A stretch of 20,597 nucleotides of DNA from a virus (Duplodnaviria > Heunggongvirae > Uroviricota > Caudoviricetes): the IMG/VR virus record IMGVR_UViG_2534681697_000013, one strand, 5' to 3'. The notes beneath the pieces are model-generated. The model saw nothing but the letters and a program-made list of their open reading frames with translations. It did no database searches and was not told the origin of the DNA. The position numbers and the translations under genes are program-made. This document shows, piece after piece, positions 318 to 14,145 of this stretch. Positions within the stretch are counted from its first letter, which is position 1; the number at the start of each line of letters is the position of its first letter.

Positions 318-3298
<2,981 letters not shown>

Positions 3299-3374
3299 AA
3301 CCCTTGCTGCGTCTGGAATGTCGTTTTCCATGCTTTTGATGACCGTTCATCACCCTTCCAGTTTTTCGCGGTTT

Positions 3375-3428
3375 TGTGTATTGCAATGTGTATTGCAAAT
3401 TGGCGATCGGGATGGGTGTGTATTGCAA
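3375..3428 (+). repeat. Three direct copies of TGTGTATTGCAA (3375..3386, 3387..3398, 3417..3428); candidate integrase arm-type sites
   Basis: Exact 12-mers between the left junction and the int start; two more copies sit just inside the right junction. Confidence 0.55.
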
Positions 3429-3446
3429 ATCTCTTGAGGGCTTTTA

Positions 3447-4688
3447 ATGGCTATTGAAAACAAACTCAGTGACAAACTGTTAAAGAGTCTTGTCGGAAAA
3501 CGGCAGGACAAACAAAAAACAATAGCGGATGGGCGCGGGTTGTCTGTGCGTGTAAGCATGGTTGGGGGGATCAGCTTTGTTTTTTACTATCGTCTTGGTG
3601 GCAGGGAATCCCCTCCGGTATGGCTTACACTTGGTCGCTATCCTGACATGTCTCTTGCAACGGCCAGGCGCATGCGTGATCAGTGCCGTGAATGGCTGGC
3701 TGAAAATCTGGACCCCCGCAGGCAAATAAAACTTGCTGCCGAAAAAACTATGCAACCAGTGACCGTAAGGGATGCGCTGTTTTACTGGTACGACAATCAC
3801 GCCACAACAGCCAGAAAAGAGCATGAATATTTAATAAAACGATTTGAAAAGCATATCTTCCCCTATATCGGTGATATGGCTATAGAACAGTGCAAATTAC
3901 ACACATGGCTTACCGTCTTTGACAGGATCAAAAAAAATGCGCCTGTTATGTCTGGTGCAATTTTTCTTGATATCAAACAGGCGTTGCGTTTTTGTCGCGT
4001 CAGGCAATACATCGCGTGCGATCCCTTTGGAGATATTAACGTAAGTTATGTCGGGCGCTCATCCGGTATAAGGGATCGCGTTCTTAATATCAATGAAACC
4101 GCTGATGTATGGTCTTATGCTTACGGTAATAATTTGCTAACTCTGTCATCAATATATAACCGAAGAATAATGGTTATCTGCTTGGTGTTTGGTTGCCGAC
4201 AGCAGGAGGCGAGGCTATCCACCTGGGACGAATGGGATTTAAAAAACTGGGTATGGACAGTCCCAAAAGAGCACAGCAAAAACAAGGAGGCTATAGTAAG
4301 GCCTGTTCCTGACGGAATAAAACAATGGATCGTTAATCTTTACGCAGAAACAAAAAATCGCGGTTATGTTGTCGGTTGTGCTTTGCAAAGGGCGACAATA
4401 ACAGGGGCTGCAAACAGAATATGCAGGCGTCTTGGTCATGATACTAATGGCTTGTGGTGCATACATGATTTCAGGCGCACATTTTCCACTACGCTTAATG
4501 ATATGGGGGCGGATCCTTATATTGTCGAACTTCTTTTAGGTCATAAAGTGAAAGGGGTTGCTGGTGTTTACAATAAAAGCAGGCATATAAAGAAAAAACT
4601 TGAGGTGCTTAATATGTGGGTTAATTACCTTAATACGATAGCAGGATTTAACAACAACGTTATCGAGCTTAATAAAGAGGTGGTGTGA
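3447..4688 (+). CDS. int: Tyrosine recombinase / integrase (P4-type), 413 aa
   Basis: ORF with upstream GAGGG; C-terminal HDFRRTF...LLGHK...GVAGVYNKS is the tyrosine recombinase catalytic region. AT-richer than the flanking lambda genes. Confidence 0.92.
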   Translation: MAIENKLSDKLLKSLVGKRQDKQKTIADGRGLSVRVSMVGGISFVFYYRLGGRESPPVWLTLGRYPDMSLATARRMRDQCREWLAENLDPRRQIKLAAEKTMQPVTVRDALFYWYDNHATTARKEHEYLIKRFEKHIFPYIGDMAIEQCKLHTWLTVFDRIKKNAPVMSGAIFLDIKQALRFCRVRQYIACDPFGDINVSYVGRSSGIRDRVLNINETADVWSYAYGNNLLTLSSIYNRRIMVICLVFGCRQQEARLSTWDEWDLKNWVWTVPKEHSKNKEAIVRPVPDGIKQWIVNLYAETKNRGYVVGCALQRATITGAANRICRRLGHDTNGLWCIHDFRRTFSTTLNDMGADPYIVELLLGHKVKGVAGVYNKSRHIKKKLEVLNMWVNYLNTIAGFNNNVIELNKEVV

Positions 4689-4689
4689 T

Positions 4690-4947
4690 ATGGCAATTTA
4701 TTCTCTTGTTGATGAAAACGATTTGCGCACAATGAAGGACATTGATCGGTTCATTCGTGAAAAAGAGTGCATAGCACTTACCACGCTGGCAAACTCAACA
4801 CGCTGGAAAATGGAGCAGGCAGGTAAATTCCCGCGACGTATCAAGATCGGTGAACGTGCTGCAGGGTATCGACTTTCAGAGGTTCAGGCATGGATCCGTG
4901 GTGAGTGGCATCCTGGATGGAAACCTGGAAAAACAAAACAGCAATAA
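4690..4947 (+). CDS. alpA: AlpA-family wHTH regulator / excisionase-like protein, 85 aa
   Basis: Starts 2 nt after int stop; motif IALTTLANSTRWKMEQAGKFPRRIKIGERAAGYRLSEVQAWI matches the AlpA family. Confidence 0.8.
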   Translation: MAIYSLVDENDLRTMKDIDRFIREKECIALTTLANSTRWKMEQAGKFPRRIKIGERAAGYRLSEVQAWIRGEWHPGWKPGKTKQQ

Positions 4948-4960
4948 CCAGTAAATAATG

Positions 4961-4983
4961 CCCCTCATCACGAGGGGTTTTTT
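4961..4983 (+). terminator. Intrinsic terminator after alpA
   Basis: Stem CCCCTC / GAGGGG with loop ATCAC, followed by TTTTTT. Confidence 0.7.
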
Positions 4984-5003
4984 GTCTATAAGGTAAAAAC
5001 GCG

Positions 5004-5582
5004 ATGAATAAAAATATTGCCGTGACGGGCAAGGGGTACGCTCGTCCAGTGAAAAAATTCTGCGATATTCGTGATCTCGTCGTTCTGCGCTTTGATAGTG
5101 TGAACGTTCGTGTGGTGTATCTGAACGGCGATCCGTGGTTTGTTGCAAAAGATGTTTGTGCTGCGCTGGAACTAACCAATTCGCGTACGGCGTTGCAGAT
5201 GCTTGATGATGATGAAAAGGGAGTAAATTTAACTTACACCCCAGGAGGAAATCAGAATATGAGAATTATCTCTGAGTCAGGTTTCTACAAACTAATAGCC
5301 CGCAGCCGCAAAGCAACGACGCCTGGCACATTTGCTCATCGTTTCAGTAACTGGGTATTCAGAAATGTGATACCAGGTATCAGAAAAACGGGGACTTATG
5401 GTATCCCGTGGGGTGCATTACAGGATTTTTCCCGCCGTAAAGAGCAATATCAAATAAGTGCCAGCGAGAAGGGGAGGGAGCTACAGGCATGTAAGCGCAA
5501 AAAGCGTGAGCTGGAGGAAGAAGAAAAAACGCTGATACGTGAATATCAGCCTGAGTTTTACTTTGGTAACCGCATTCAGTGA
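5004..5582 (+). CDS. Bro-N domain protein (antirepressor-like), 192 aa
   Basis: N-terminus VVYLNGDPWFVAKDVCAALELTNSRTALQMLDDDEKG...GGNQNMRIISESGFYKLIARSRKA matches the Bro-N family; C-terminus is a charged coiled-coil-like tail. Confidence 0.78.
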   Translation: MNKNIAVTGKGYARPVKKFCDIRDLVVLRFDSVNVRVVYLNGDPWFVAKDVCAALELTNSRTALQMLDDDEKGVNLTYTPGGNQNMRIISESGFYKLIARSRKATTPGTFAHRFSNWVFRNVIPGIRKTGTYGIPWGALQDFSRRKEQYQISASEKGRELQACKRKKRELEEEEKTLIREYQPEFYFGNRIQ

Positions 5583-5591
5583 CAAAACAAA

Positions 5592-5612
5592 GGCGACCGC
5601 AAAAGGGTCGCC
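5592..5612. terminator. Hairpin between convergent genes (possible bidirectional terminator)
   Basis: Stem GGCGACC / GGTCGCC, loop GCAAAAG. T-rich tract only on the minus-strand side; none on the plus side. Confidence 0.5.
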
Positions 5613-5678
5613 AGTGGGAACAAGGGAAAACAAAAGCATCACCAACAATGCCACATTTGCGGCTGGTGGGCAATGTGA

Positions 5679-5858
5679 TCAGTCAGATTTGGTTCGTTCC
5701 AAGGTTTGCAACGAGAGCTTTTTCCTGTGCTCTTTAAGGAATTTCTCAAGAGCAAACGAACAAGGTGCGAATCTTTCTGATTCATGTTCATGCGCTATAT
5801 TTTTGCGTCGTCTCTTACGAGTTGGTGATGGTGTTTTGGTTGATTCTGTGTCGCTCAT
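5679..5858 (-). CDS. Small basic hypothetical protein, 59 aa (below the ORF-track size cutoff)
   Basis: Minus ATG at 5858 to TGA at 5679 encodes MSDTESTKTPSPTRKRRRKNIAHEHESERFAPCSFALEKFLKEHRKKLSLQTLERTKSD; weak AGGA upstream; directly downstream of the 101-aa minus ORF. Confidence 0.3.
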   Translation of the reverse strand: MSDTESTKTPSPTRKRRRKNIAHEHESERFAPCSFALEKFLKEHRKKLSLQTLERTKSD

Positions 5859-5915
5859 GGTGCTGTCCTGTAAAGCAATGCGCCTGCGTTCCTCAAACTA
5901 TGGCGCTGATATTGG

Positions 5916-6221
5916 CTATTCATGCTCTTTGACCTTGCGTCGCTGGAGTTCTTCACGCGCGACGGTGACGAGTTGCCCGATCTCCTCGGCTGCTTTGATG
6001 CCGATTTGTTCGACCTTAGCCAGGGCATCCAGTGACGACACAAGGGGATTTTCTCCGCTGCCTTCTGCTTGGCGGCGGGCTATTTCTCCGCGCATGGCGG
6101 TTACGATAAATCCGGCATTGCTTTCACCGTCCAGCTTAACGGATTCCATCCCTTGCATAACATCTAGTGGGACTCTGACAGTTGTCAGTTGTGATTTTGC
6201 GTTTTTGTTAGCCGTTGCCAT
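5916..6221 (-). CDS. Hypothetical protein, 101 aa; possible ribbon-helix-helix-type regulator
   Basis: AGGAG 8 nt upstream of ATG; N-terminal QLTTVRVPLDVMQGMESVK resembles a beta-strand plus helix start. Transcribed divergently from the operator region. Function is inferred. Confidence 0.5.
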   Translation of the reverse strand: MATANKNAKSQLTTVRVPLDVMQGMESVKLDGESNAGFIVTAMRGEIARRQAEGSGENPLVSSLDALAKVEQIGIKAAEEIGQLVTVAREELQRRKVKEHE

Positions 6222-6242
6222 TTCTGAAACTCCTAATCATCG

Positions 6243-6320
6243 GTGTGTTTCAGTATACACAAAAAAAGAAATACAAAAAGCCTTGACGTGTGTTTCATGC
6301 GCTCATAACATGAAACACAC
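6243..6320. promoter_or_regulatory. Divergent promoter region with operator-like repeats (candidate genetic switch)
   Basis: Plus strand: TTGACG (6283..6288), 17 bp, TAACAT (6306..6311). Perfect 12-bp inverted repeat GTGTGTTTCATG (6288..6299) / CATGAAACACAC (6309..6320), plus a third half-site GTGTGTTTCA at 6243..6252 over a minus-strand TATACT -10 candidate (6252..6257). Confidence 0.5.
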
Positions 6321-6348
6321 CGAAAGGATTGTTGAAATACAAAGAGCA

Positions 6349-6382
6349 ACGCCCCGCAGTGCTGGGAACACATACGGGGCGT
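6349..6382 (+). other. Stem-loop in the 5' leader of the rightward operon
   Basis: 8-bp stem ACGCCCCG / CGGGGCGT with an 18-nt loop, no T tract after it; lies between the promoter and the first ORF. Confidence 0.35.
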
Positions 6383-6411
6383 CTAACCAACAACGTAAAC
6401 TAGGAGCCGTT

Positions 6412-6609
6412 ATGGTTGCTGTAAATCATATACCACACCTTGTACACACACAAACGGCCTTTGTGTGGCGTTTTCTGGCACTGAGTGCCGGAGAATCTCA
6501 AATCATCCACGTAACCGCCTGGACGGAACGCGAAGCGCGTAGCCGTTGCCCGTCCGGTTGTGTTGCTGTATTCGCTGCAAAAATCCGCCAGGGAGTGAGT
6601 CATGCTTAA
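6412..6609 (+). CDS. Hypothetical small protein, 65 aa
   Basis: AGGAG 5 nt upstream of ATG 6412; stop overlaps the next ORF start at 6602. It is the C-terminal frame of the otherwise implausible track ORF 5539..6609. Confidence 0.4.
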   Translation: MVAVNHIPHLVHTQTAFVWRFLALSAGESQIIHVTAWTEREARSRCPSGCVAVFAAKIRQGVSHA

Positions 6610-6787
6610 AACCTTCCGTGTATTTGCCCGAGCTGTTAACCCAATAGGCCACACAATTGGTATCGCTCAGAATGTGAAGGCTGTTAATGTTCAGACGGCT
6701 ATTGCTGCGGTGAGAAGCGAATCATCAGAATATGGCTTATCACAAGTCATTATTTCAGCAGTGTATGAATTAAAAGAGGTGCATTAA
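6602..6787 (+). CDS. Hypothetical protein, 61 aa
   Basis: GGAGTGAG upstream of ATG; overlapping, translationally coupled operon layout. Confidence 0.45.
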   Translation: MLKTFRVFARAVNPIGHTIGIAQNVKAVNVQTAIAAVRSESSEYGLSQVIISAVYELKEVH

Positions 6788-6978
6788 TGCAGGAAATTAC
6801 ATTACACGAAGCCGCTGAACGTGCGCACCAGACAGAAATTATTTGCCGCCTTCTTGAGGTATACCCGAACAAAATTACAGATGCTGATATATCCGCACTG
6901 GCGAGCCTACTGGCGCGTCTTTCGGGAAGTGTCGCTAGTTTTTTGATTGAGGAAGAAAGTAAGCTGGTGGGGGATTAA
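6787..6978 (+). CDS. Hypothetical protein, 63 aa
   Basis: AGAGGTG upstream of ATG; start overlaps the preceding ORF end. Confidence 0.45.
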   Translation: MQEITLHEAAERAHQTEIICRLLEVYPNKITDADISALASLLARLSGSVASFLIEEESKLVGD

Positions 6979-7200
6979 ATGAATACAGAACGGGAAGTCT
7001 TTTTTAAATTGTTAGCATGTGCAGAAAGTTCATTAACTTTAAATAATTCAGCAAAAGCAATATTAAATATGTGGCTTGATTGCATAAATGACAATGAAGA
7101 TGCAAATATTGCTTATGGCCTGTTGTCACTTATTGATGAATCAGCAGAAAAACTCAATGACGCAATAAATAGTGCCCTGCTATCAAATAAGTCGAGTTAA
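6979..7200 (+). CDS. Hypothetical protein, 73 aa (AT-rich gene)
   Basis: Starts right after the previous stop with GGGGGA upstream; markedly lower GC than its neighbours. Confidence 0.5.
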   Translation: MNTEREVFFKLLACAESSLTLNNSAKAILNMWLDCINDNEDANIAYGLLSLIDESAEKLNDAINSALLSNKSS

Positions 7201-7217
7201 GTCGAGGAATAAATAAT

Positions 7218-7517
7218 ATGGAAATGAAAAATTCTGGCTTTATTGCCAGCGGCCCCGCTCGACCTGAATTTATGAACGGCGATATTTACCGCGATAAATA
7301 CGGCGGCACGGTAACGATTAAAGGCGTGGCAGAACGGCGCATCACTTACCGCCGTGAGGGGTATAGCTATGACTGCGTGATGCCTGTTTATCAGTTCCGG
7401 CGTGATTTTTCCCTGGTATATGCCGCACCCCGCAGTAAGCCCATCAGCAGGGAAAAAGCGTGGGGAAATATCCAGAAAATGAAAACCATGATTAACGGAT
7501 TCAGAGGTAAAAAATGA
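7218..7517 (+). CDS. Hypothetical protein, 99 aa
   Basis: GAGGAA upstream of ATG; stop overlaps the primase start. Confidence 0.55.
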   Translation: MEMKNSGFIASGPARPEFMNGDIYRDKYGGTVTIKGVAERRITYRREGYSYDCVMPVYQFRRDFSLVYAAPRSKPISREKAWGNIQKMKTMINGFRGKK

Positions 7518-9268
7518 AACTGGCACCGAACGTAAAACAGCAGTCACGCGGCATAAAACACAAAGGAACAGAAGTAATTATTTTTGCGGGTAGTGATGCC
7601 TGGGCACACGCGAAACAATGGCAGGAACATGATGCGCGTATGGCCGGAGATAATGAGCCTCCTGTGTGGCTTGGGGAGCAGCAGCTATCCGAACTGGATA
7701 ATCTGCAAATTGTGCCGGAAGGCCGAAAATCAGCACGCATATACAGGGCCGGATATCTTGCGCCTGTAATGATAAAGGCGATTGGTCAGAAGCTGGCGGC
7801 AGCAGGCGTACAGGATGCAAATTTTTATCCTGAGGGTATGCACGGCCAGGAGGTGCAGAACTGGCGCGAATATCTGGCCCGTGAACGCCAGAATCTTTCT
7901 GATGGTCTGGTCATTGAGCTTCCGGTAAAGCAAAAGGCGCAACTTTCGCAGATGGCGGACAGTGAGCGCGCGCAGTTGCTTGCCGATCGCTTTGATGGCG
8001 TTTGCGTACATCCTGAAAGTGAAATCGTTCACGTATGGCGCGGCGGGGTATGGTGTCCGGTCAGCACAATGGAACTTAGCCGCGAAATGGTGGCGATCTA
8101 TTCAGAGCACAGGGCCACTTTCAGCAAGCGCGTAATCAATAACGCCGTGGAAGCGTTAAAAGTTATTGCCGAACCAATGGGCGAGCCGTCTGGCGATTTG
8201 CTGCCGTTCGCCAATGGTGCGCTTGACCTGAAAACGGGGGAATTTTCCCCGCACACGCCGGAGAACTGGATCACCACGCACAACGGCATTGAGTACACGC
8301 CACCAGCACCAGGGGAGAACATCCGCGATAACGCGCCAAACTTTCATAAATGGCTTGAGCACGCAGCCGGAAAAGACCCGCGCAAGATGATGCGTATATG
8401 TGCCGCGCTGTACATGATTATGGCGAACCGGTACGACTGGCAGATGTTTATTGAGGCCACCGGAGACGGCGGGAGCGGTAAAAGTACATTCACACACATA
8501 GCCAGCCTTCTGGCAGGGAAACAGAACACGGTAAGCGCTGAAATGACATCGCTTGATGATGCTGGTGGACGTGCGCAGGTTGTCGGGAGTCGTCTTATCG
8601 TCCTGGCTGACCAGCCGAAATATACAGGCGAAGGAACGGGCATCAAGAAAATCACAGGCGGCGACCCCGTGGAAATTAACCCGAAATATGAAAAGCGTTT
8701 CACGGCGGTAATCAGGGCGGTGGTGCTGGCGACCAACAACAACCCGATGATATTCACCGAACGGGCCGGAGGTGTGGCACGTCGTCGCGTGATTTTCCGT
8801 TTCGACAATATCGTCAGTGAGGCCGAAAAAGACAGGGAGCTACCGGAAAAGATTGCGGCTGAAATCCCCGTTATTATCCGCCGATTGCTGGCGAACTTTA
8901 CCGACCCTGAGAAGGCACGGGCTTTACTACTGGAACAGCGTGACGGTGATGAAGCACTGGCAATAAAGCAACAGACGGATCCGGTTATTGAGTTTTGCCA
9001 GTTCCTGAATTTTCTGGAGGAAGCGCGCGGCCTGATGATGGGTGGCGGTGGTGATTCAGTGAAGTACACGACCAGGAACAGCCTTTACCGCGTCTATCTG
9101 GCGTTTATGGCATACGCGGGCAGGAGCAAACCGCTAAACGTGGCTGAGTTCAGCAAGGCCATGAAGCCAGCGGCGAAAGTTTACGGGCATGAATATATTA
9201 CGCGAAAAGTTAAGGGAGTAACGCAGACCAACGCAATTACAACAGACGATTGCGACGCGTTTTTATAA
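7514..9268 (+). CDS. Primase-helicase (P4 alpha-type), 584 aa
   Basis: Walker A GDGGSGKST and downstream helicase-like region; last gene of the small-ORF operon and followed directly by iterons. Confidence 0.88.
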   Translation: MKLAPNVKQQSRGIKHKGTEVIIFAGSDAWAHAKQWQEHDARMAGDNEPPVWLGEQQLSELDNLQIVPEGRKSARIYRAGYLAPVMIKAIGQKLAAAGVQDANFYPEGMHGQEVQNWREYLARERQNLSDGLVIELPVKQKAQLSQMADSERAQLLADRFDGVCVHPESEIVHVWRGGVWCPVSTMELSREMVAIYSEHRATFSKRVINNAVEALKVIAEPMGEPSGDLLPFANGALDLKTGEFSPHTPENWITTHNGIEYTPPAPGENIRDNAPNFHKWLEHAAGKDPRKMMRICAALYMIMANRYDWQMFIEATGDGGSGKSTFTHIASLLAGKQNTVSAEMTSLDDAGGRAQVVGSRLIVLADQPKYTGEGTGIKKITGGDPVEINPKYEKRFTAVIRAVVLATNNNPMIFTERAGGVARRRVIFRFDNIVSEAEKDRELPEKIAAEIPVIIRRLLANFTDPEKARALLLEQRDGDEALAIKQQTDPVIEFCQFLNFLEEARGLMMGGGGDSVKYTTRNSLYRVYLAFMAYAGRSKPLNVAEFSKAMKPAAKVYGHEYITRKVKGVTQTNAITTDDCDAFL

Positions 9269-9281
9269 TTTTTTGTAAAAG

Positions 9282-9503
9282 CCATCTACCCCATCTACCT
9301 GAACGAAATAAACGCATATTATTCAACATGATAAGTGGGTATAGGGCTAGGTAGAAGGCTAATAAAAGCTCTCTACCTCTTCTACCTGATTTTATCAGTT
9401 TCAGGTAGCAGGGTAGACGGCAGGTAGAGGAGTCAAAAAAGCTATCTACCCGCTGAAAGCGGCGCCATTACTGACATGATGAGCATTCGGGTAGATGGGT
9501 AGA
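9282..9503. repeat. Iteron cluster with AT-rich core; candidate replication origin
   Basis: (C)CATCTACC-type repeats on the plus strand at 9284, 9293, 9371, 9381, 9444 and inverted GGTAGA copies at 9350, 9404, 9412, 9423, 9490, 9498; terminal blocks CCATCTACCCCATCTACC and GGGTAGATGGGTAGAGG mirror each other; AT-rich stretch around 9300..9345. Confidence 0.6.
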
Positions 9504-9553
9504 GGGGGGGAGGCACAACTAAAAACTTTTTAAACGAGGGGGGGTGAAAATAA

Positions 9554-9868
9554 ATGCGCATACATAAAAATCACTTAACAAACATGCCAGCCGAAAACAT
9601 GAATCAGGGGCGACAAATGACCAAAATTCGCAGAGACAGAACACAGGCAAAATATAAAGCGTTAGACATGACAGAGCTTTCCTTAAAGGTGGCAATCAAA
9701 GCGATAGACCACCACACACGGGCAGGATACGCGAAGGAACATCCCGACCTGATAAGCGCATTCATGACCACAGCAGCGGCAAACTTTGCCACGCTGACAG
9801 AACGGGAGATTGCCGAAGCGGAACAGGTGACAACCATCAATGTTAAAACCGGAGAGCAGACAGCATGA
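9554..9868 (+). CDS. Hypothetical protein, 104 aa (true start may be a downstream Met)
   Basis: ORF after a G-rich Shine-Dalgarno-like tract; stop overlaps the SSB-like gene start (ATGA). Confidence 0.5.
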   Translation: MRIHKNHLTNMPAENMNQGRQMTKIRRDRTQAKYKALDMTELSLKVAIKAIDHHTRAGYAKEHPDLISAFMTTAAANFATLTEREIAEAEQVTTINVKTGEQTA

Positions 9869-10287
9869 CAGCACAGATAGCGGCTTACGGGCGGCTGGTG
9901 GCTGACCCGCAGTTAAAGACCACCAGCAAAGGGACACAAATGGCGATGGCGAGTATGGCGGTTCCCCTGCCGTGCAGCCAGGCAGATGACGGAACGGCGA
10001 CGATGTGGTTATCCGTCCTGGCGTTTGGCAGACAGGCCGACGCACTGGCAAAACACCACAAAGGCGAACTGGTGAGCGTGGCGGGTAACATGCAGGTAAG
10101 CCAGTGGACAGGCCAGAACGGCGAAACGCGGCGGGGCTGGCAGGTTATCGCAGACAGCGTAATCAGTGCGCGAACGGCGCGACCGGGCGGCAAAAAAGGC
10201 CAGCAGGGGCAGGCCACTGACGCACTGAACAGGGCAAAACAACAGTCGGGGAATGATGATCCGTACGGCGATAATATACCGTTTTAA
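9865..10287 (+). CDS. ssb: Single-stranded DNA-binding protein-like, 140 aa
   Basis: OB-fold-like core WLSVLAFGRQADALAKHHKGELVSVAGNMQVSQWTGQNGETRRGWQVIADSV, Gly/Gln-rich linker and a C-terminal ...DDPYGDNIPF tail resembling the SSB DDDIPF tip. Confidence 0.7.
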   Translation: MTAQIAAYGRLVADPQLKTTSKGTQMAMASMAVPLPCSQADDGTATMWLSVLAFGRQADALAKHHKGELVSVAGNMQVSQWTGQNGETRRGWQVIADSVISARTARPGGKKGQQGQATDALNRAKQQSGNDDPYGDNIPF

Positions 10288-10304
10288 ATTCTGCAAACAA
10301 AAAG

Positions 10305-10333
10305 ATGCCGGAAAAAAATAGATTTTCCGGCAT
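10305..10333. terminator. Strong hairpin after the SSB-like gene (putative terminator)
   Basis: Perfect 11-bp stem ATGCCGGAAAA / TTTTCCGGCAT with a 7-nt loop; no clear T tract after it, so terminator function is uncertain. Confidence 0.4.
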
Positions 10334-10498
10334 GCTACATAAATCCCGACCAAAGGAAGTAAATACATTAACACGAATTATCAGCACTGAAGTTGTTACG
10401 GCATATTTTATACAACATTGCACTTGGTTGCATGTGTTCGCATAGCAGACATCGGTAATAGAATATATTCACAATTATTTGTAATGAATGTAAAGAGG

Positions 10499-11545
10499 AT
10501 GAGTATGGTTGATTTATATTCGCCTACACAGCTTGTGCAGGTGGCTAATGCTGAAGATGTGCAAAAAAATTAAATGCGTTGTTTACCAGTTTGTTTTTCA
10601 CTCGCTCGGTAATGTTTGAATCGAGAGACATTATTCTTGATACGATCGACGATCCAAATATCCCGATCGCGGCGTTTTGCTCTCCTATGGTGGGCAGTAA
10701 AGTTTCACGAGATGAGGGATACGAATCAAAAACAATTCGTCCAGGTTATATGAAGCCGAAAAGCAGCATTGATCCAAATAAGTTAGCTGTGCAGCCCTGC
10801 TGGTGTGTCACCTGAGCAATACAATGCTTTTGGGGCGCGTAATATTAAAGTTAAACAGGCGATTGTAAATCAGGCTAAAGCTATTCGTGCACGTATTGAA
10901 TGGCTTGCTGTTCAGGCAATCACAACGGGGAAAAATATCATTGAGGGCGATGGTATTGAACGTTATGAGCTGGACTGGAATATAAAACCACAAAATATCA
11001 TCACTCAGTCTGGCGGTACTGAGTGGTCAGGTAAGGATAAAGAAACTTTTGATCCAAATGATGATATTGAGAGCTACGCAGAATTTAGTGAGGGCGTCAC
11101 TAATATCATCATTATGGGTGGTAATGTATGGAAGAAATACCGTTCATTCAGAGCGATAAAAGAGGCTTTGGATACCCGTCGTGGTTCTAATTCCGAACTG
11201 GAAACGGCCCTTAAAGACCTTGGTGATTCGGTGAGTTTTAAAGGGTATATGGGCGATGTTGCGATTGTTGTTTACAGCGGGCGTTATACCGACGAGGACG
11301 GAACAGAAAAACATTTCCTTGATCCTGATTTGATGGTGCTTGGCAATACGGCTCTTCAGGGGATTGTCGCCTATGGCGGTATTCAGGATCCGGAGCTAAT
11401 CCGAATGGGGCTGACTAAAGCCGAACTTGCACCGAAAAACTATATTGTGCCTGGTGATCCGGCTATTGAATATGTGCAGACACATTCAGCACCACAGCCA
11501 ATACCGGCCCGCATCAATCGTTTTGTTACCGTTCGCATTGGCTAA
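10499..11545 (+). pseudogene. Major capsid protein gene (lambda gpE-like), disrupted by two frameshifts
   Basis: Three consecutive frames each align with successive parts of gpE. First: MSMVDLYSPTQLVQVANAEDVQKN*, stopping at 10571. Second, to 10815: KKLNALFTSLFFTRSV...PGYMKPKSSIDPNKLAVQP. Third, 10805..11545: ...ITQSGGTEWSGKDKETFDPNDDIESY...DTRRGSNSELETALKDLG...GDVAIVVYSG.... The breaks sit in an A7 run (10563..10569) and a CCC run (10795..10797). Confidence 0.75.
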
Positions 11546-11554
11546 GGGGGAGCA

Positions 11555-11896
11555 ATGGCTACTCATTACACTGAACTCATGGCTGGCACTGAAGCACTGG
11601 TGACTACGCTGGGGATATTTTCAGCTAATAAAGGGGTAATTCCTGCATTTACGCCACTGATGCAGGAAGATGCAACAGGTGCACTGGTGGTATGGGATGG
11701 TTCGAGCGTAGGTAAAGCGGTTTATGTTTCCGCTGTACAAATCGACACCGCGAAAAAAACACAGGCTCAGGTCTATAAGACAGGTGTCTTAAATGTTGAT
11801 GCTCTGAACTGGCCTGAGTCTGTTAAAGAACTGTCAGTAAAGGTTGCAGCGTTTGTTGGCTCAGGTATTTCTGTTCAGCCGCTGGCTCGTGTGTAA
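11555..11896 (+). CDS. Head decoration protein (lambda gpD-like), 113 aa, apparently intact
   Basis: AAGGGGGA upstream of ATG. LVVWDGSSVGKAVYVSAV, VYKTGVLNVDALNWPE and AAFVGSGISV parallel the gpD motifs [34 protein letters not shown] and [10 protein letters not shown]. Confidence 0.72.
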   Translation: MATHYTELMAGTEALVTTLGIFSANKGVIPAFTPLMQEDATGALVVWDGSSVGKAVYVSAVQIDTAKKTQAQVYKTGVLNVDALNWPESVKELSVKVAAFVGSGISVQPLARV

Positions 11897-11907
11897 AGGG
11901 GGATACA

Positions 11908-12291
11908 ATGCAGAATGATTACAATGACCTTAAGCCAATTGCCGAAATGATGTACCCGAATCCAGCTGTAGAGGAATTAAAAGCTATCGCTGACAAAATG
12001 TGTTTAAGCGAGCGCCTTGTTGATATGAATCAGGTGATGGAAATTACAACCCTGAGTCGTCGTACACTGCTAAACCTTGAGGCTAGTGGAGAGTTCCCGG
12101 AGCGTGTGCAGGTTACGGAAGGGCGTAAGGCCTGGTATTTAAGTGAAGTGATCGACTGGATAAATAATATTCCTCGCGCTTCTGAATATTGCCGCGTACC
12201 TGTCCCAAAAAAGCCAGATGCGGCGCTATGCCTCAAGATTGAGCGTGTACGCCGCAATGCACGGGATGGTCGCTATAAGCTGATTGGTTGA
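11908..12291 (+). CDS. AlpA/MerR-type wHTH DNA-binding protein, 127 aa
   Basis: AGGGGGA upstream of ATG; motif MNQVMEITTLSRRTLLNLEASGEFPERVQVTEGRKAWYLSEVIDWI matches the AlpA family. Sits between the decoration gene and cos. Confidence 0.6.
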   Translation: MQNDYNDLKPIAEMMYPNPAVEELKAIADKMCLSERLVDMNQVMEITTLSRRTLLNLEASGEFPERVQVTEGRKAWYLSEVIDWINNIPRASEYCRVPVPKKPDAALCLKIERVRRNARDGRYKLIG

Positions 12292-12343
12292 TGAAATTAG
12301 GGCCCGCTCTGGCTGGCGGGTCCTTTCCGGTGATCCGGTAGGC

Positions 12344-12381
12344 TACGGGGCGGCGACCTCGCGGGTTTTCGCTATTTATGA
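12344..12381. other. cos site: lambda-type cosN (cohesive-end 12-mer GGGCGGCGACCT at 12348..12359)
   Basis: TACGGGGCGGCGACCTCGCGGGTTTTCGCTATTTATGA matches the lambda cosN region; downstream sequence up to the small terminase gene differs from lambda cosB. Confidence 0.75.
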
Positions 12382-12492
12382 GCCTTTTTCGGGTGCTGGT
12401 GGTGGTTTTGTTGTTCGCTCTATCTCTATGAATAAAAAGGAAAAGATAAAGCCAATACACCAACCTGAAACATTACTTAAGTGGGGATATTG

Positions 12493-13035
12493 ATGAAATC
12501 GCACCTGATGAACAAAAAAAACATGGCGCAAAGCTGCCGTGTAAGTGCGACAGCGTTCGACAAGTGGGGAGTGACTCCCGTTGAACGTAAAGGCCGCGAG
12601 GCGTTTTATGATGTTGCCAGCGTAATAGACAATCGGGTTAGCAATGCAATTAACCAGATTACAGACGACAAAGGCGAGATTGATGATGATGAACTCCTAC
12701 GAGTCAGGATCAGATTGCTGACAGCACAGGCAGAGGCGCAGGAGCTTAAAAACGAGCGCGAACGCGGCGACGTTATTGATACAGCGTTTTGTATATACGT
12801 GCTTTCAAAATTGGCGAGTCAGATTTCTTCAATCATGGACAGCCTGCCGCTTGCCATGACAAGGAAGTTTCCCGACATGAAGCCGTCTATGCTGGATGGA
12901 CTGAAAAAAGAAGTTATCAGAGCCTGTAACGCATGCGCAAAACTTGACGAAAACATACCGCTGATGCTGTCCGATTATCTGATGGAAACTGCCGGAAACG
13001 TACCGGATAAGTTGCAGCCGAATAAAGATAAGTAA
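12493..13035 (+). CDS. Terminase small subunit homologue (Nu1-like), about 180 aa; start could instead be 12481 (GTG) or 12508 (ATG)
   Basis: LLTAQAEAQELKNERERGDVIDTAFCIYVLSKLASQISSIMDSLPLAMTRKFPDMKPSMLDGLKKEVIRACNACAKLDENIPLMLSDYL parallels the Nu1 C-terminal half in this window; N-terminus MNKKNMAQ... parallels Nu1 MEVNKKQLA...; immediately downstream of cos. Confidence 0.8.
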   Translation: MKSHLMNKKNMAQSCRVSATAFDKWGVTPVERKGREAFYDVASVIDNRVSNAINQITDDKGEIDDDELLRVRIRLLTAQAEAQELKNERERGDVIDTAFCIYVLSKLASQISSIMDSLPLAMTRKFPDMKPSMLDGLKKEVIRACNACAKLDENIPLMLSDYLMETAGNVPDKLQPNKDK

Positions 13036-13046
13036 CGTAGTACGCT

Positions 13047-13328
13047 ATGACTGAATCCGAAATACTGCGATTAATCCGCCGTGCTTGTGGAATCAGCAAG
13101 CAGCATGACGAACAGGCCACGCAGCCGGACAGCGTGACCGCAGATAATTATGTGCGTGTAGTGGCTGAGGTGATGCGCCGTGACGGTATTGAGCTTAACG
13201 GCGTGGATATGCGCAACATACGAACAAGAGTCCTTGAGTTGCTGGCATATCGTCGCCGTTCTCAACAACGGAGGGAGAGCGCGAAAAATACTTACCAGTG
13301 GAAGAAGCCGGAACGATTGCGGCGGTAA
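13047..13328 (+). CDS. Hypothetical protein, 93 aa
   Basis: ORF 12 nt after the small terminase stop; no strong Shine-Dalgarno; function unknown. Confidence 0.45.
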   Translation: MTESEILRLIRRACGISKQHDEQATQPDSVTADNYVRVVAEVMRRDGIELNGVDMRNIRTRVLELLAYRRRSQQRRESAKNTYQWKKPERLRR

Positions 13329-13579
13329 CTTGCTGATATTCCCGATAACGCAAAATTGCGCTGGCTGACTTGTTGCATTGCAAAAAGTTAAGCAGGAAGG
13401 CACGGCCTGTAAGATGGGATGCAGTAAGTAGTTCAAGGCTACCTTGTGCTGGCACGCACAGTTAAGCCGTCGGTGCTGGATATCCCCCACTGGGGGAAAA
13501 GCTGGCTACATCCCTCACATCTGAGGACTGATAACGCGACATTGCGCTGGCTGGCAAAGTGCAAAATTGCACGATGGCC

Positions 13580-13726
13580 TAACCCATTGATTATTTCGAA
13601 AACCTGCAATGCAGGAAATCGGGGAAGTAAGCCTAAGCTATTGATTGTTTCGAAAACCCCCATTGGGGGATGTCGGGAAAGTAAGACTAACCCATTGATT
13701 CTTCCACAATCCTCAATTTGAGGAGG
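13580..13726. repeat. Tandem direct repeats of about 54 bp (2.5 copies), each with a short inverted repeat
   Basis: Units begin TAACCCATTGATTATTTCGAAAACC, TAAGCTATTGATTGTTTCGAAAACC and TAACCCATTGATTCTTCC; each contains a small palindrome (CTGCAATGCAG, CCCCCATTGGGGG, CCTCAATTTGAGG) and ends GG(G)AAGTAAG(C/A)C. Confidence 0.55.
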
Positions 13727-14041
13727 CCGGAACGTCTACATAGCTGCATCGCCGTAATGATGATTCAGCCCACCAGCCAAATCAGCACAGCAACGACAGA
13801 ATAGCCCGACACAGAAAAACCACGAATATGGGGTTTTTGTTATGACATGGTCATGATGACCACTCATACAAAACAGGTAAAGCCCACCAGCCTGATTAAA
13901 GGTTAACCGGAAAAAAGCCAGGTATCCAATCTCGATATGGGGATCCCTATATCGACATTAACGCCCACTAAAACTGTGCATATATGCATAGAAAAAGCAT
14001 CCACCAGCTTTATGACGGATGCCGCTCATCTTATAAATAAT

Positions 14042-14065
14042 CGTGTATTGCAGTGTGTATTGCGA
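14042..14065 (+). repeat. Two direct copies of (C/T)GTGTATTGC(A/G) (14042..14052, 14054..14065); candidate arm-type sites at the right end
   Basis: Same motif and orientation as the three copies upstream of int. Confidence 0.5.
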
Positions 14066-14137
14066 CTCCTTTAAACGATAGGTCTGAGCATTCGTAATGT
14101 ACTGTTTTTAAATTTTATTTTTTCCTGTCTTTTCATA

Positions 14138-14145
14138 AAGGCGAT
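14138..14145. other. Right junction core (attR-like) AAGGCGAT
   Basis: Direct repeat of 3239..3246; portal-like sequence resumes in frame immediately after. Confidence 0.6.

Follow-up and report, generated by a model that had tools for sequence, protein, structure and literature searches.

Introduction

The described satellites closest to our subject are the helper-embedded phage-inducible chromosomal islands (HE-PICIs) of the 11capE integrase clade, which occupy the site B:Phage_portal_2; several such sites are on record, one of them at profile position 241, and 'Primase, SSB and DUF5906' are assigned there to the replication category of Gram-negative PICIs, beside mapped origins (PMC10111431). 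The stretch of DNA analysed here – IMG/VR virus record IMGVR_UViG_2534681697_000013, a caudoviricete sequence whose full 20,597 nucleotides we call the window – holds an element of this kind, with a gene (ssb) whose product is a binding protein for single-stranded DNA (SSB). The element shares with the published HE-PICIs the portal site (split in the window at profile position 238) and the SSB, primase and DUF5906 replication genes; the SSB itself and its tail are not analysed in that paper. The original prediction held that the tip of this SSB, GDNIPF in place of the canonical DDDIPF, is a variant that could bias the recruitment of replication proteins toward the element. We find that GDNIPF is the commonest form of the tip in its family and that it does not follow the satellite's primase; the protein is likely an ordinary SSB of an HE-PICI replication module.

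The prototype Gram-negative PICI, EcCICFT073, has a module of the same design: DUF4222, primase, small open reading frame (ORF) and ssb, followed by capsid and decoration genes. Its primase is 98% identical to that of the window, its SSB (WP_000126698.1, CFT073 1384538-1384948) has a homologous core, and the tip follows the same format, DDPYGDxIPF. The differences lie in the SSB as a whole, which is 69% identical and 136 aa long, in x (D and not N), in the linker (RRKTTGTQGNQPPAG where the window SSB has KKGQQGQATDALNRAKQQSG), and in location, EcCICFT073 residing in a chromosomal site and the window element in a prophage portal gene.

The chromosomal SSB of E. coli (PF00436, tip MDFDDDIPF) has in common with the satellite protein an oligonucleotide/oligosaccharide-binding (OB) fold, the equivalents of W54, F60 and W88, a disordered linker and an acidic tip with an Ile-Pro-Phe end, an aromatic residue at -7 and Asp at -5. 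It differs in the tip (DDD against GDN), in the linker (56 against 30 aa) and in overall sequence (26% identity). In complexes of the host tip with RecO and ExoI only the hydrophobic end is ordered, the Asp residues being disordered; partner docking depends mainly on Pro-Phe, single Asp changes are minor, and only removal of all three Asp matches the loss of Pro176 or Phe177 and abolishes binding (PMC3152348). The DIPF segment has been termed essential, with the residue before Ile tolerating Glu (PMC10143822).

Two further systems bear on the tip. The SSB of an F-like plasmid (tip DDYGFSDDIPF; from the genome nearest to the window, G001) is another mobile-element SSB; its tip differs from DDDIPF at -6 but preserves DDIPF and, like that of the satellite SSB, is preceded by an acidic, aromatic and Gly-containing stretch. 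Plasmid SSBs are close copies of the host core, whereas that of the satellite represents a lineage both old and separate. In T7 gp2.5 the tail, which is acidic and terminates in Phe, brings in replication proteins of the element itself, much as had been proposed for the window protein (PMC13402713). Gp2.5 is a dimer from another SSB family, and T7 has a polymerase gene of its own where the satellite has none; for the satellite SSB we found no co-variation of tip and primase.

Results

The window encodes a genuine SSB

The gene and its parts are as follows.

9865..10287, + strand: satellite ssb gene, 140 codons and a TAA stop
9865..10167, + strand: predicted OB-fold core for binding single-stranded DNA (ssDNA), residues 1-101
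10168..10254, + strand: short basic linker, residues 102-130, including the conserved segment QATDALNRAKQQ
10255..10284, + strand: acidic C-terminal tip DDPYGDNIPF, residues 131-140, with N137 encoded by AAT at 10273-10275

The ORF listing gives one long + strand frame, opening with ATG and specifying a product of 140 aa. Over residues 5-99 this product matches the Pfam SSB family PF00436 (E=5.5e-16; 58.9 bits, cut-off 26); it also exceeds the cut-off of NCBIfam TIGR00621 (59.8 bits against 53.95) and matches phrog_44, 'single strand DNA binding protein', at 1e-39. A search of PDB sequences returned 26 chains, SSBs without exception. None of the narrow equivalog models was reached, PRK09010 for example scoring 25 against a cut-off of 260. 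An identical protein from E. coli EC93, WP_000126640.1, bears the RefSeq label 'single-stranded DNA-binding protein'. Minus-strand ORFs of 110-122 aa that run across ssb were discarded as spurious: they are without homology support and antisense to a strongly conserved coding frame.

The C-terminus reads ...SGNDDPYGDNIPF, and the 3' end of the gene, ...CAG TCG GGG AAT GAT GAT CCG TAC GGC GAT AAT ATA CCG TTT TAA, translates as ...QSGNDDPYGDNIPF*, so that the ending DDPYGDNIPF given by the original prediction agrees with the sequence. The same prediction had described an element-encoded SSB-like protein with an OB-fold-like core, and ORF, family, fold and position within a satellite replication module all bear this out.

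The fold was examined with an AlphaFold2 model of the single chain, built on 35 family members, which might have spoken against an OB fold and instead supports one. Residues 1-101 form a beta-barrel, with six strands (2-11, 16-19, 25-36, 44-54, 69-82 and 88-101) and one helix (55-62), with a predicted local distance difference test score (pLDDT) of 80-90. The best 50 Foldseek matches in the PDB are all bacterial SSBs, at target-normalised template modelling (TM) scores of 0.63-0.81; the best is S. aureus SsbA (7ym1, E 1.3e-9, TM 0.79), and the E. coli SSB-ssDNA complex 1eqq is among the matches. From residue 104 to 140 pLDDT falls below 50, and this part of the model is probably disordered.

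Alignment with the host-type SSB, taken from G001, had been put forward as a check on the prediction, and yielded 26% identity with the W54, F60 and W88 equivalents kept. Three of the four ssDNA-stacking aromatics are thus present, as W48, F54 and W81; the fourth, W40 of E. coli SSB, aligns with Cys37. The L23 loop is three residues shorter than that of the host protein. As a separate observation, Cys at this Trp40 stacking position (codon 9973-9975) is near-invariant across the satellite SSB family.

Where the original prediction called the linker Gly/Gln-rich, the description holds in part: Gly and Gln each make up 17% of it, where the host has 30% Gly and 20% Gln, so that it is only moderately rich, and it is also short and basic (residues 101-130; 30 aa against 56 in the host, net charge +5).

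Within this 'disordered' linker lies the conserved segment QATDALNRAKQQ (residues 116-127; 10210-10245), where AlphaFold2 places a helix at 117-127, with low confidence. Its counterparts are QATDALRRA in relatives from other genera and KATEALERAKRQ in DUF927-type satellites; the EcCICFT073-type linker is without it. The segment may be a second interaction motif.

Taken together, profile, fold and tail architecture establish that 9865-10287 encodes a genuine bacterial-type member of the SSB family. For this protein we infer ssDNA binding, oligomeric state, expression timing and docking onto host partners.

GDNIPF is the commonest tip in the family

For the conservation of the tip we compared 97 sequences, full-length and representing clusters at 90% identity. 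All 97 have D136, P139 and F140, 94 have I138, residue 134 is aromatic in every one (Y in 82, F in 9, W in 6), and residue 135 is mostly Gly. Position 137 stands apart: N occurs in 48 representatives, D in 19, G in 18, E in 11 and S in 1, and at 1.84 bits only one other column of the protein varies more between allele classes. Weighting by cluster size puts N well ahead: across the 20 clusters tallied, about 4057 of the 5056 member sequences have it. The motif of the family is DDP[Y/F]GDxIPF; GDNIPF is the norm and the commonest allele, and position 137 is a single tolerant site in an otherwise conserved tip, Asn137 being one allele of it.

In the wider clade – representatives at 50% identity ending [ILV]PF – the equivalent of position 137 is D in 13, E in 12, A in 5, P in 4, S in 2 and N in 1, with others besides, and Asp stands at -5 in 37 of 41. 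Tips in other genera include PPFDDETPF, PYDDDF, PPFDDEAPF, YPFNDEPEF and DDDPPF, which share no more than the terminal Phe and acidic residues close to it.

The host tip presents a different picture. A sample of 201 genomes across the order (GTDB) contains the exact DDDIPF-stop in 160, including 11 of the 11 from the same family, and it is written there with many different synonymous codons; the reversed pattern, searched as a control, gave one match. The satellite SSB, with GDNIPF, does not carry this exact hub motif. It does retain Pro-Phe-COOH, Ile, Asp at -5, Asp at -9/-10 and an aromatic residue at -7, where the host has Phe. Because Pro-Phe-COOH, Ile, Asp at -5 and the aromatic at -7 are kept, we would expect docking to host partners to be retained, though perhaps more weakly wherever the Asp run is important.

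Two side observations concern SSB tails. A tail-less form is common among the satellite proteins: a cluster of 249 members has 114 aa and ends ...GKKGQQ, and in one IMG/VR allele codon 114 (10204-10206) has changed from CAG to TAG. Such proteins would be without the linker helix and the entire tip. On the host side, G001 has a second chromosomal SSB paralogue (contig 1, 3070390-3070689 region) in which ...PPMDFDDDIPF is followed by 15 extra residues, APVTLPFPRHAIHAI; its hub motif is not C-terminal, and the carboxylate anchor would be lost.

The tip does not track the primase

A tip tuned to the element should follow the only other replication protein that the satellite encodes.

7514..9268, + strand: satellite primase-helicase (D5_N, DUF5906 and Pox_D5 by profile scans, with the C-terminus of the P4-family primase; 98% identical to the EcCICFT073 primase)

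The SSBs that share 96% identity or more with that of the window carry N at 137 in 54 of 55 alleles and sit behind three kinds of primase: D5_N-type primases 85-100% identical to the window's (about 20 loci), D5_N-type primases only 25-50% identical (about 27 loci) and DUF927-type primases (about 8 loci). Conversely, EcCICFT073 and a capsid-forming PICI (cf-PICI; locus L011) combine a primase 98% identical to that of the window with a 69%-identical SSB ending GDDIPF. In other genera, too, a single tip, PPFDDEDPF, is found with either primase family. The one constant in all these combinations of tip and primase is the host.

We therefore reject the possibility that the tip is tuned to the satellite primase, the GDNIPF protein occurring with unrelated primases and the same primase with a GDDIPF protein. 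The broader claim of the original prediction, a variant tip that biases recruitment to the element, is not supported: GDNIPF is the commonest allele, the host-docking residues are invariant, and co-variation with the primase is lacking. The tip may nonetheless bring a quantitative shift in preference among host partners.

Selection on ssb

From the 80 closest IMG/VR loci we obtained 78 full-length ssb genes, comprising 55 distinct nucleotide alleles. Of 88 variable codons, 57 vary purely synonymously. At codon 137, 17 alleles have AAT, 37 have AAC and one has GGG; the presence of both AAT and AAC indicates that Asn has been kept across synonymous change.

Proportions of synonymous (pS) and non-synonymous (pN) differences were obtained by the Nei-Gojobori method, summing over every pairing of the 54 alleles that are free of a premature stop. 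For the whole gene pS is 0.149 and pN 0.010, giving a pN/pS of 0.067, and by region the ratio is 0.083 for the core, 0.045 for the linker and 0.058 for the tip – values that are biased downward by the ranking of loci on protein identity. Despite this bias, a synonymous divergence of 15-20% beside a non-synonymous divergence of about 1% would be impossible unless the gene were constrained, and the alleles thus point to purifying selection on a functional ssb, linker and tip included.

Cores and tails appear to have been exchanged. Mapped onto a tree built from the core, position 137 requires 31 changes, where shuffled labels require 44; for the tail positions -11 and -12 the corresponding figures are 36 against 49 and 29 against 36. 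That the three positions behave alike suggests that cores and tails are reshuffled by recombination. We make no claim of diversifying selection at codon 137: recombination between tail and core explains the changes at least equally well, and N is retained within the closest allele class.

The satellite and its replication module

The remaining features set ssb in its context.

3239..14145, + strand: helper-embedded PICI carrying ssb, in a lambdoid portal gene
9276..9506, no strand assigned: iteron cluster, CCATCTACC and GGTAGATGG in both orientations; probable satellite origin
9617..9868, + strand: ORF83 (phrog_1231), small helical protein coupled to ssb
10305..10333, no strand assigned: GC-rich hairpin, 18 nt 3' of the ssb stop, from a scan for terminator-like structures

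The satellite, 10.9 kb in size, interrupts the portal gene of a lambdoid prophage. The break between the two portal fragments falls at position 238 of the Phage_portal_2 profile in Pfam, AAGGCGAT is found at both junctions (3239-3246 and 14138-14145), and lambda-like head genes lie on both sides. Its layout is that of a PICI, with int, alpA, a replication module built on the primase-helicase and few packaging or capsid genes; neither the EC93 annotation nor Pfam and PHROG scans gave tail or lysis genes. In E. coli EC93 the annotated order is integrase, helix-turn-helix (HTH) regulator, BRO-N, YlcI, Icd-like, small ORFs and DUF4222, then DNA primase family protein, hypothetical, SSB, major capsid, head decoration, HTH, small terminase and hypothetical; the block lies in a lambdoid head-tail operon, with one half of a lambda-family portal gene on either side. 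Positions 9400-10500 are 100% identical to chromosomal DNA of EC93 and other strains; of the 5426 complete E. coli genomes, 1666 contain matches at 80% identity or above, with up to six places in each. The element is a helper-embedded PICI, a satellite type already published (PMC10111431). A scan of the whole window against Rfam gave no RNA family.

The lambda-E-type capsid gene downstream of ssb (10505-11545, + strand) is broken in the window into ORFs 10579-10815 and 10805-11545, which lie in different frames; in the near-identical element of EC93 it is intact, at 346 aa.

The replication module is ordered as origin iterons, primase-helicase, ORF83 and ssb. Seven of the 11 matches to the iterons in the window (at most one mismatch) fall within 225 bp, between the primase stop at 9268 and ORF83, with CCATCTACC spaced at about 70-90 bp, and none of 100 shuffles reached 11 matches. 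The cluster is the probable origin of satellite replication. The hairpin at 10305-10333 is the probable end of the replication operon; its T-run lies on the minus-strand side, so that the strand terminated is uncertain.

ORF83 ends in a TGA that overlaps the ATG of ssb (ATGA, 9865-9868), the usual sign of translational coupling. Of the 78 IMG/VR loci where ssb matches at full length, at least 70 also carry ORF83, regardless of the kind of primase present. AlphaFold2 models ORF83 as a helical hairpin (pLDDT 72); searches placed it in no Pfam or NCBIfam family, and its fold had no match in the PDB. The C-terminal half, GYAKxHPxLISAFMTTAAANFATLTEREIAEAEQVTTINVKTGEQTA, is almost invariant, and the N-terminal third is variable.

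The link between gene and module extends well beyond the window. Among 33 loci from other Enterobacterales species, most have the homologue no more than about 1 kb downstream of a primase of the D5_N/DUF5906 or DUF927 kind; a capsid-forming PICI in a 32.6-kb E. coli record (a PLSDB-listed plasmid) has the same module arrangement, as does a third satellite type, with a DUF927 primase, ProQ, PerC and antiterminator Q. IMG/VR holds 413 close relatives of the protein, many on satellite-sized contigs of 9-13 kb, and the best match among 50,697 phage genomes reaches 30% identity only. Given the satellite-sized relatives, the arrangement shared across PICI types and the distance of the best phage match, the lineage – an old and separate one – belongs to satellites and not to sequenced phages.

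One relative falls outside this range: a 5.7-kb contig in a metagenome-assembled genome labelled Candidatus Paceibacterota carries a 63%-identical SSB together with PerC, ProQ and an integrase fragment. This copy is most likely a binning artefact.

Discussion

There is little new in the gene or in the element as such: the SSB was already annotated, and both the satellite type and the place of SSB in its replication module are published. A critical issue is what the tip is for. Lack of co-variation between tip and primase, together with N as the majority allele and the invariance of the host-docking residues, leaves the idea of retargeting unsupported. We think it likely that the protein is the ordinary SSB of an HE-PICI replication module, an extra supply for satellite replication that still docks host partners.

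Under this explanation, induction would lead the satellite's superfamily 3 (SF3) primase-helicase to open the iteron origin, and SSB made from the same operon would coat the exposed single strands, its own supply adding capacity while helper phage and satellite replicate together. The invariant ...D-x-I-P-F-COOH end would dock the host proteins that normally read the tail of host SSB; the host polymerase would be used, since the satellite encodes none. Asn137 would not be a device for redirecting partners to the element.

Several observations weigh against so simple an account. Satellite tips are diverse across genera and the host DDDIPF is fixed, which is hard to reconcile with a tip that serves all host partners. 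Of the three Asp of DDDIPF, GDNIPF keeps but one in its last six residues; partners that have a strong 'basic ridge' could therefore bind it with noticeably lower affinity. The core shares just 26% identity with that of the host protein, Cys37 stands in place of W40, Leu49 in place of H55 at the tetramer interface, and the protein is basic overall (isoelectric point (pI) 9.25 against 5.44), so that oligomeric state and binding mode may differ from those of host SSB. To these must be added the downward bias of the pN/pS values.

The leading alternative is a refined form of the original prediction. The GDN tip might keep the Pro-Phe anchor while lowering affinity for host partners that depend on the Asp run; coated ssDNA would then recruit a subset of partners (replication factors, or a satellite protein such as the primase or ORF83), favouring replication over repair or degradation. 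Consistent with this are the departure of the tip from a host hub motif that is near-invariant across the order (160 of 201 genomes), the purifying selection on the tip within the closest allele class (pN/pS 0.058, a value biased downward), its strong differences between allele classes and genera, and the precedent of T7 gp2.5, whose acidic, Phe-terminated tail binds the phage's own polymerase and helicase-primase (summarised in PMC13402713). However, the same GDNIPF protein occurs beside unrelated primase families and the same primase beside GDDIPF proteins, and variability of 1.84 bits at column 137, the second highest, is unexpected of a contact that determines specificity; single Asp changes, moreover, are reported to be minor (PMC3152348). 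The tight linkage and translational coupling of ORF83 to ssb fit the alternative as well, but could reflect mere physical adjacency. On balance we regard it as unlikely.

PICIs are known to interfere with their helper phages, and the satellite SSB might act mainly to this end rather than on behalf of the satellite, out-competing host SSB on ssDNA, recruiting partners poorly and so slowing replication or recombination of the helper, the target being either helper or host. The higher pI, the short basic linker and the fewer Asp in the tip are in keeping with such a role, as is the frequency of the tail-less ...GKKGQQ allele (249 cluster members). But ssb is always found in the replication module, by origin and primase, and not among genes for interference or packaging, and the conserved IPF end argues for retained partner docking; interference is thus improbable. 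That tail and surface diversified under pressure to avoid or trigger systems that sense foreign SSBs is very improbable and pure speculation: phage SSBs are reported to activate Retron-Eco8, AbpAB, Hna, DARNA and DRT10, but the acidic C-tail of the T7 SSB is dispensable for activation of Retron-Eco8 (PMC13402713), and no feature of the locus ties ssb to a defence gene.

Our preferred reading of an ordinary SSB carries a practical consequence: the 'variant tip' is the norm of its family and does not track the primase, and it is not to be read as a retargeting device absent biochemical evidence. A more general idea, which we consider quite unlikely, follows from an old and separate lineage whose tails are constant within an allele class and different between classes and genera, set against a host DDDIPF that is fixed. 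Satellite tails could be 'partner filters', in which the Pro/Phe-COOH anchor borrows the host polymerase and the shed Asp run spares the recruitment of nucleases and recombination mediators, or in which the tail binds a satellite factor such as ORF83. If true, satellite ssDNA would be replicated rather than processed. The invariant host tip and the diverse satellite tips together constitute a natural series for establishing which tip residues each host partner needs.

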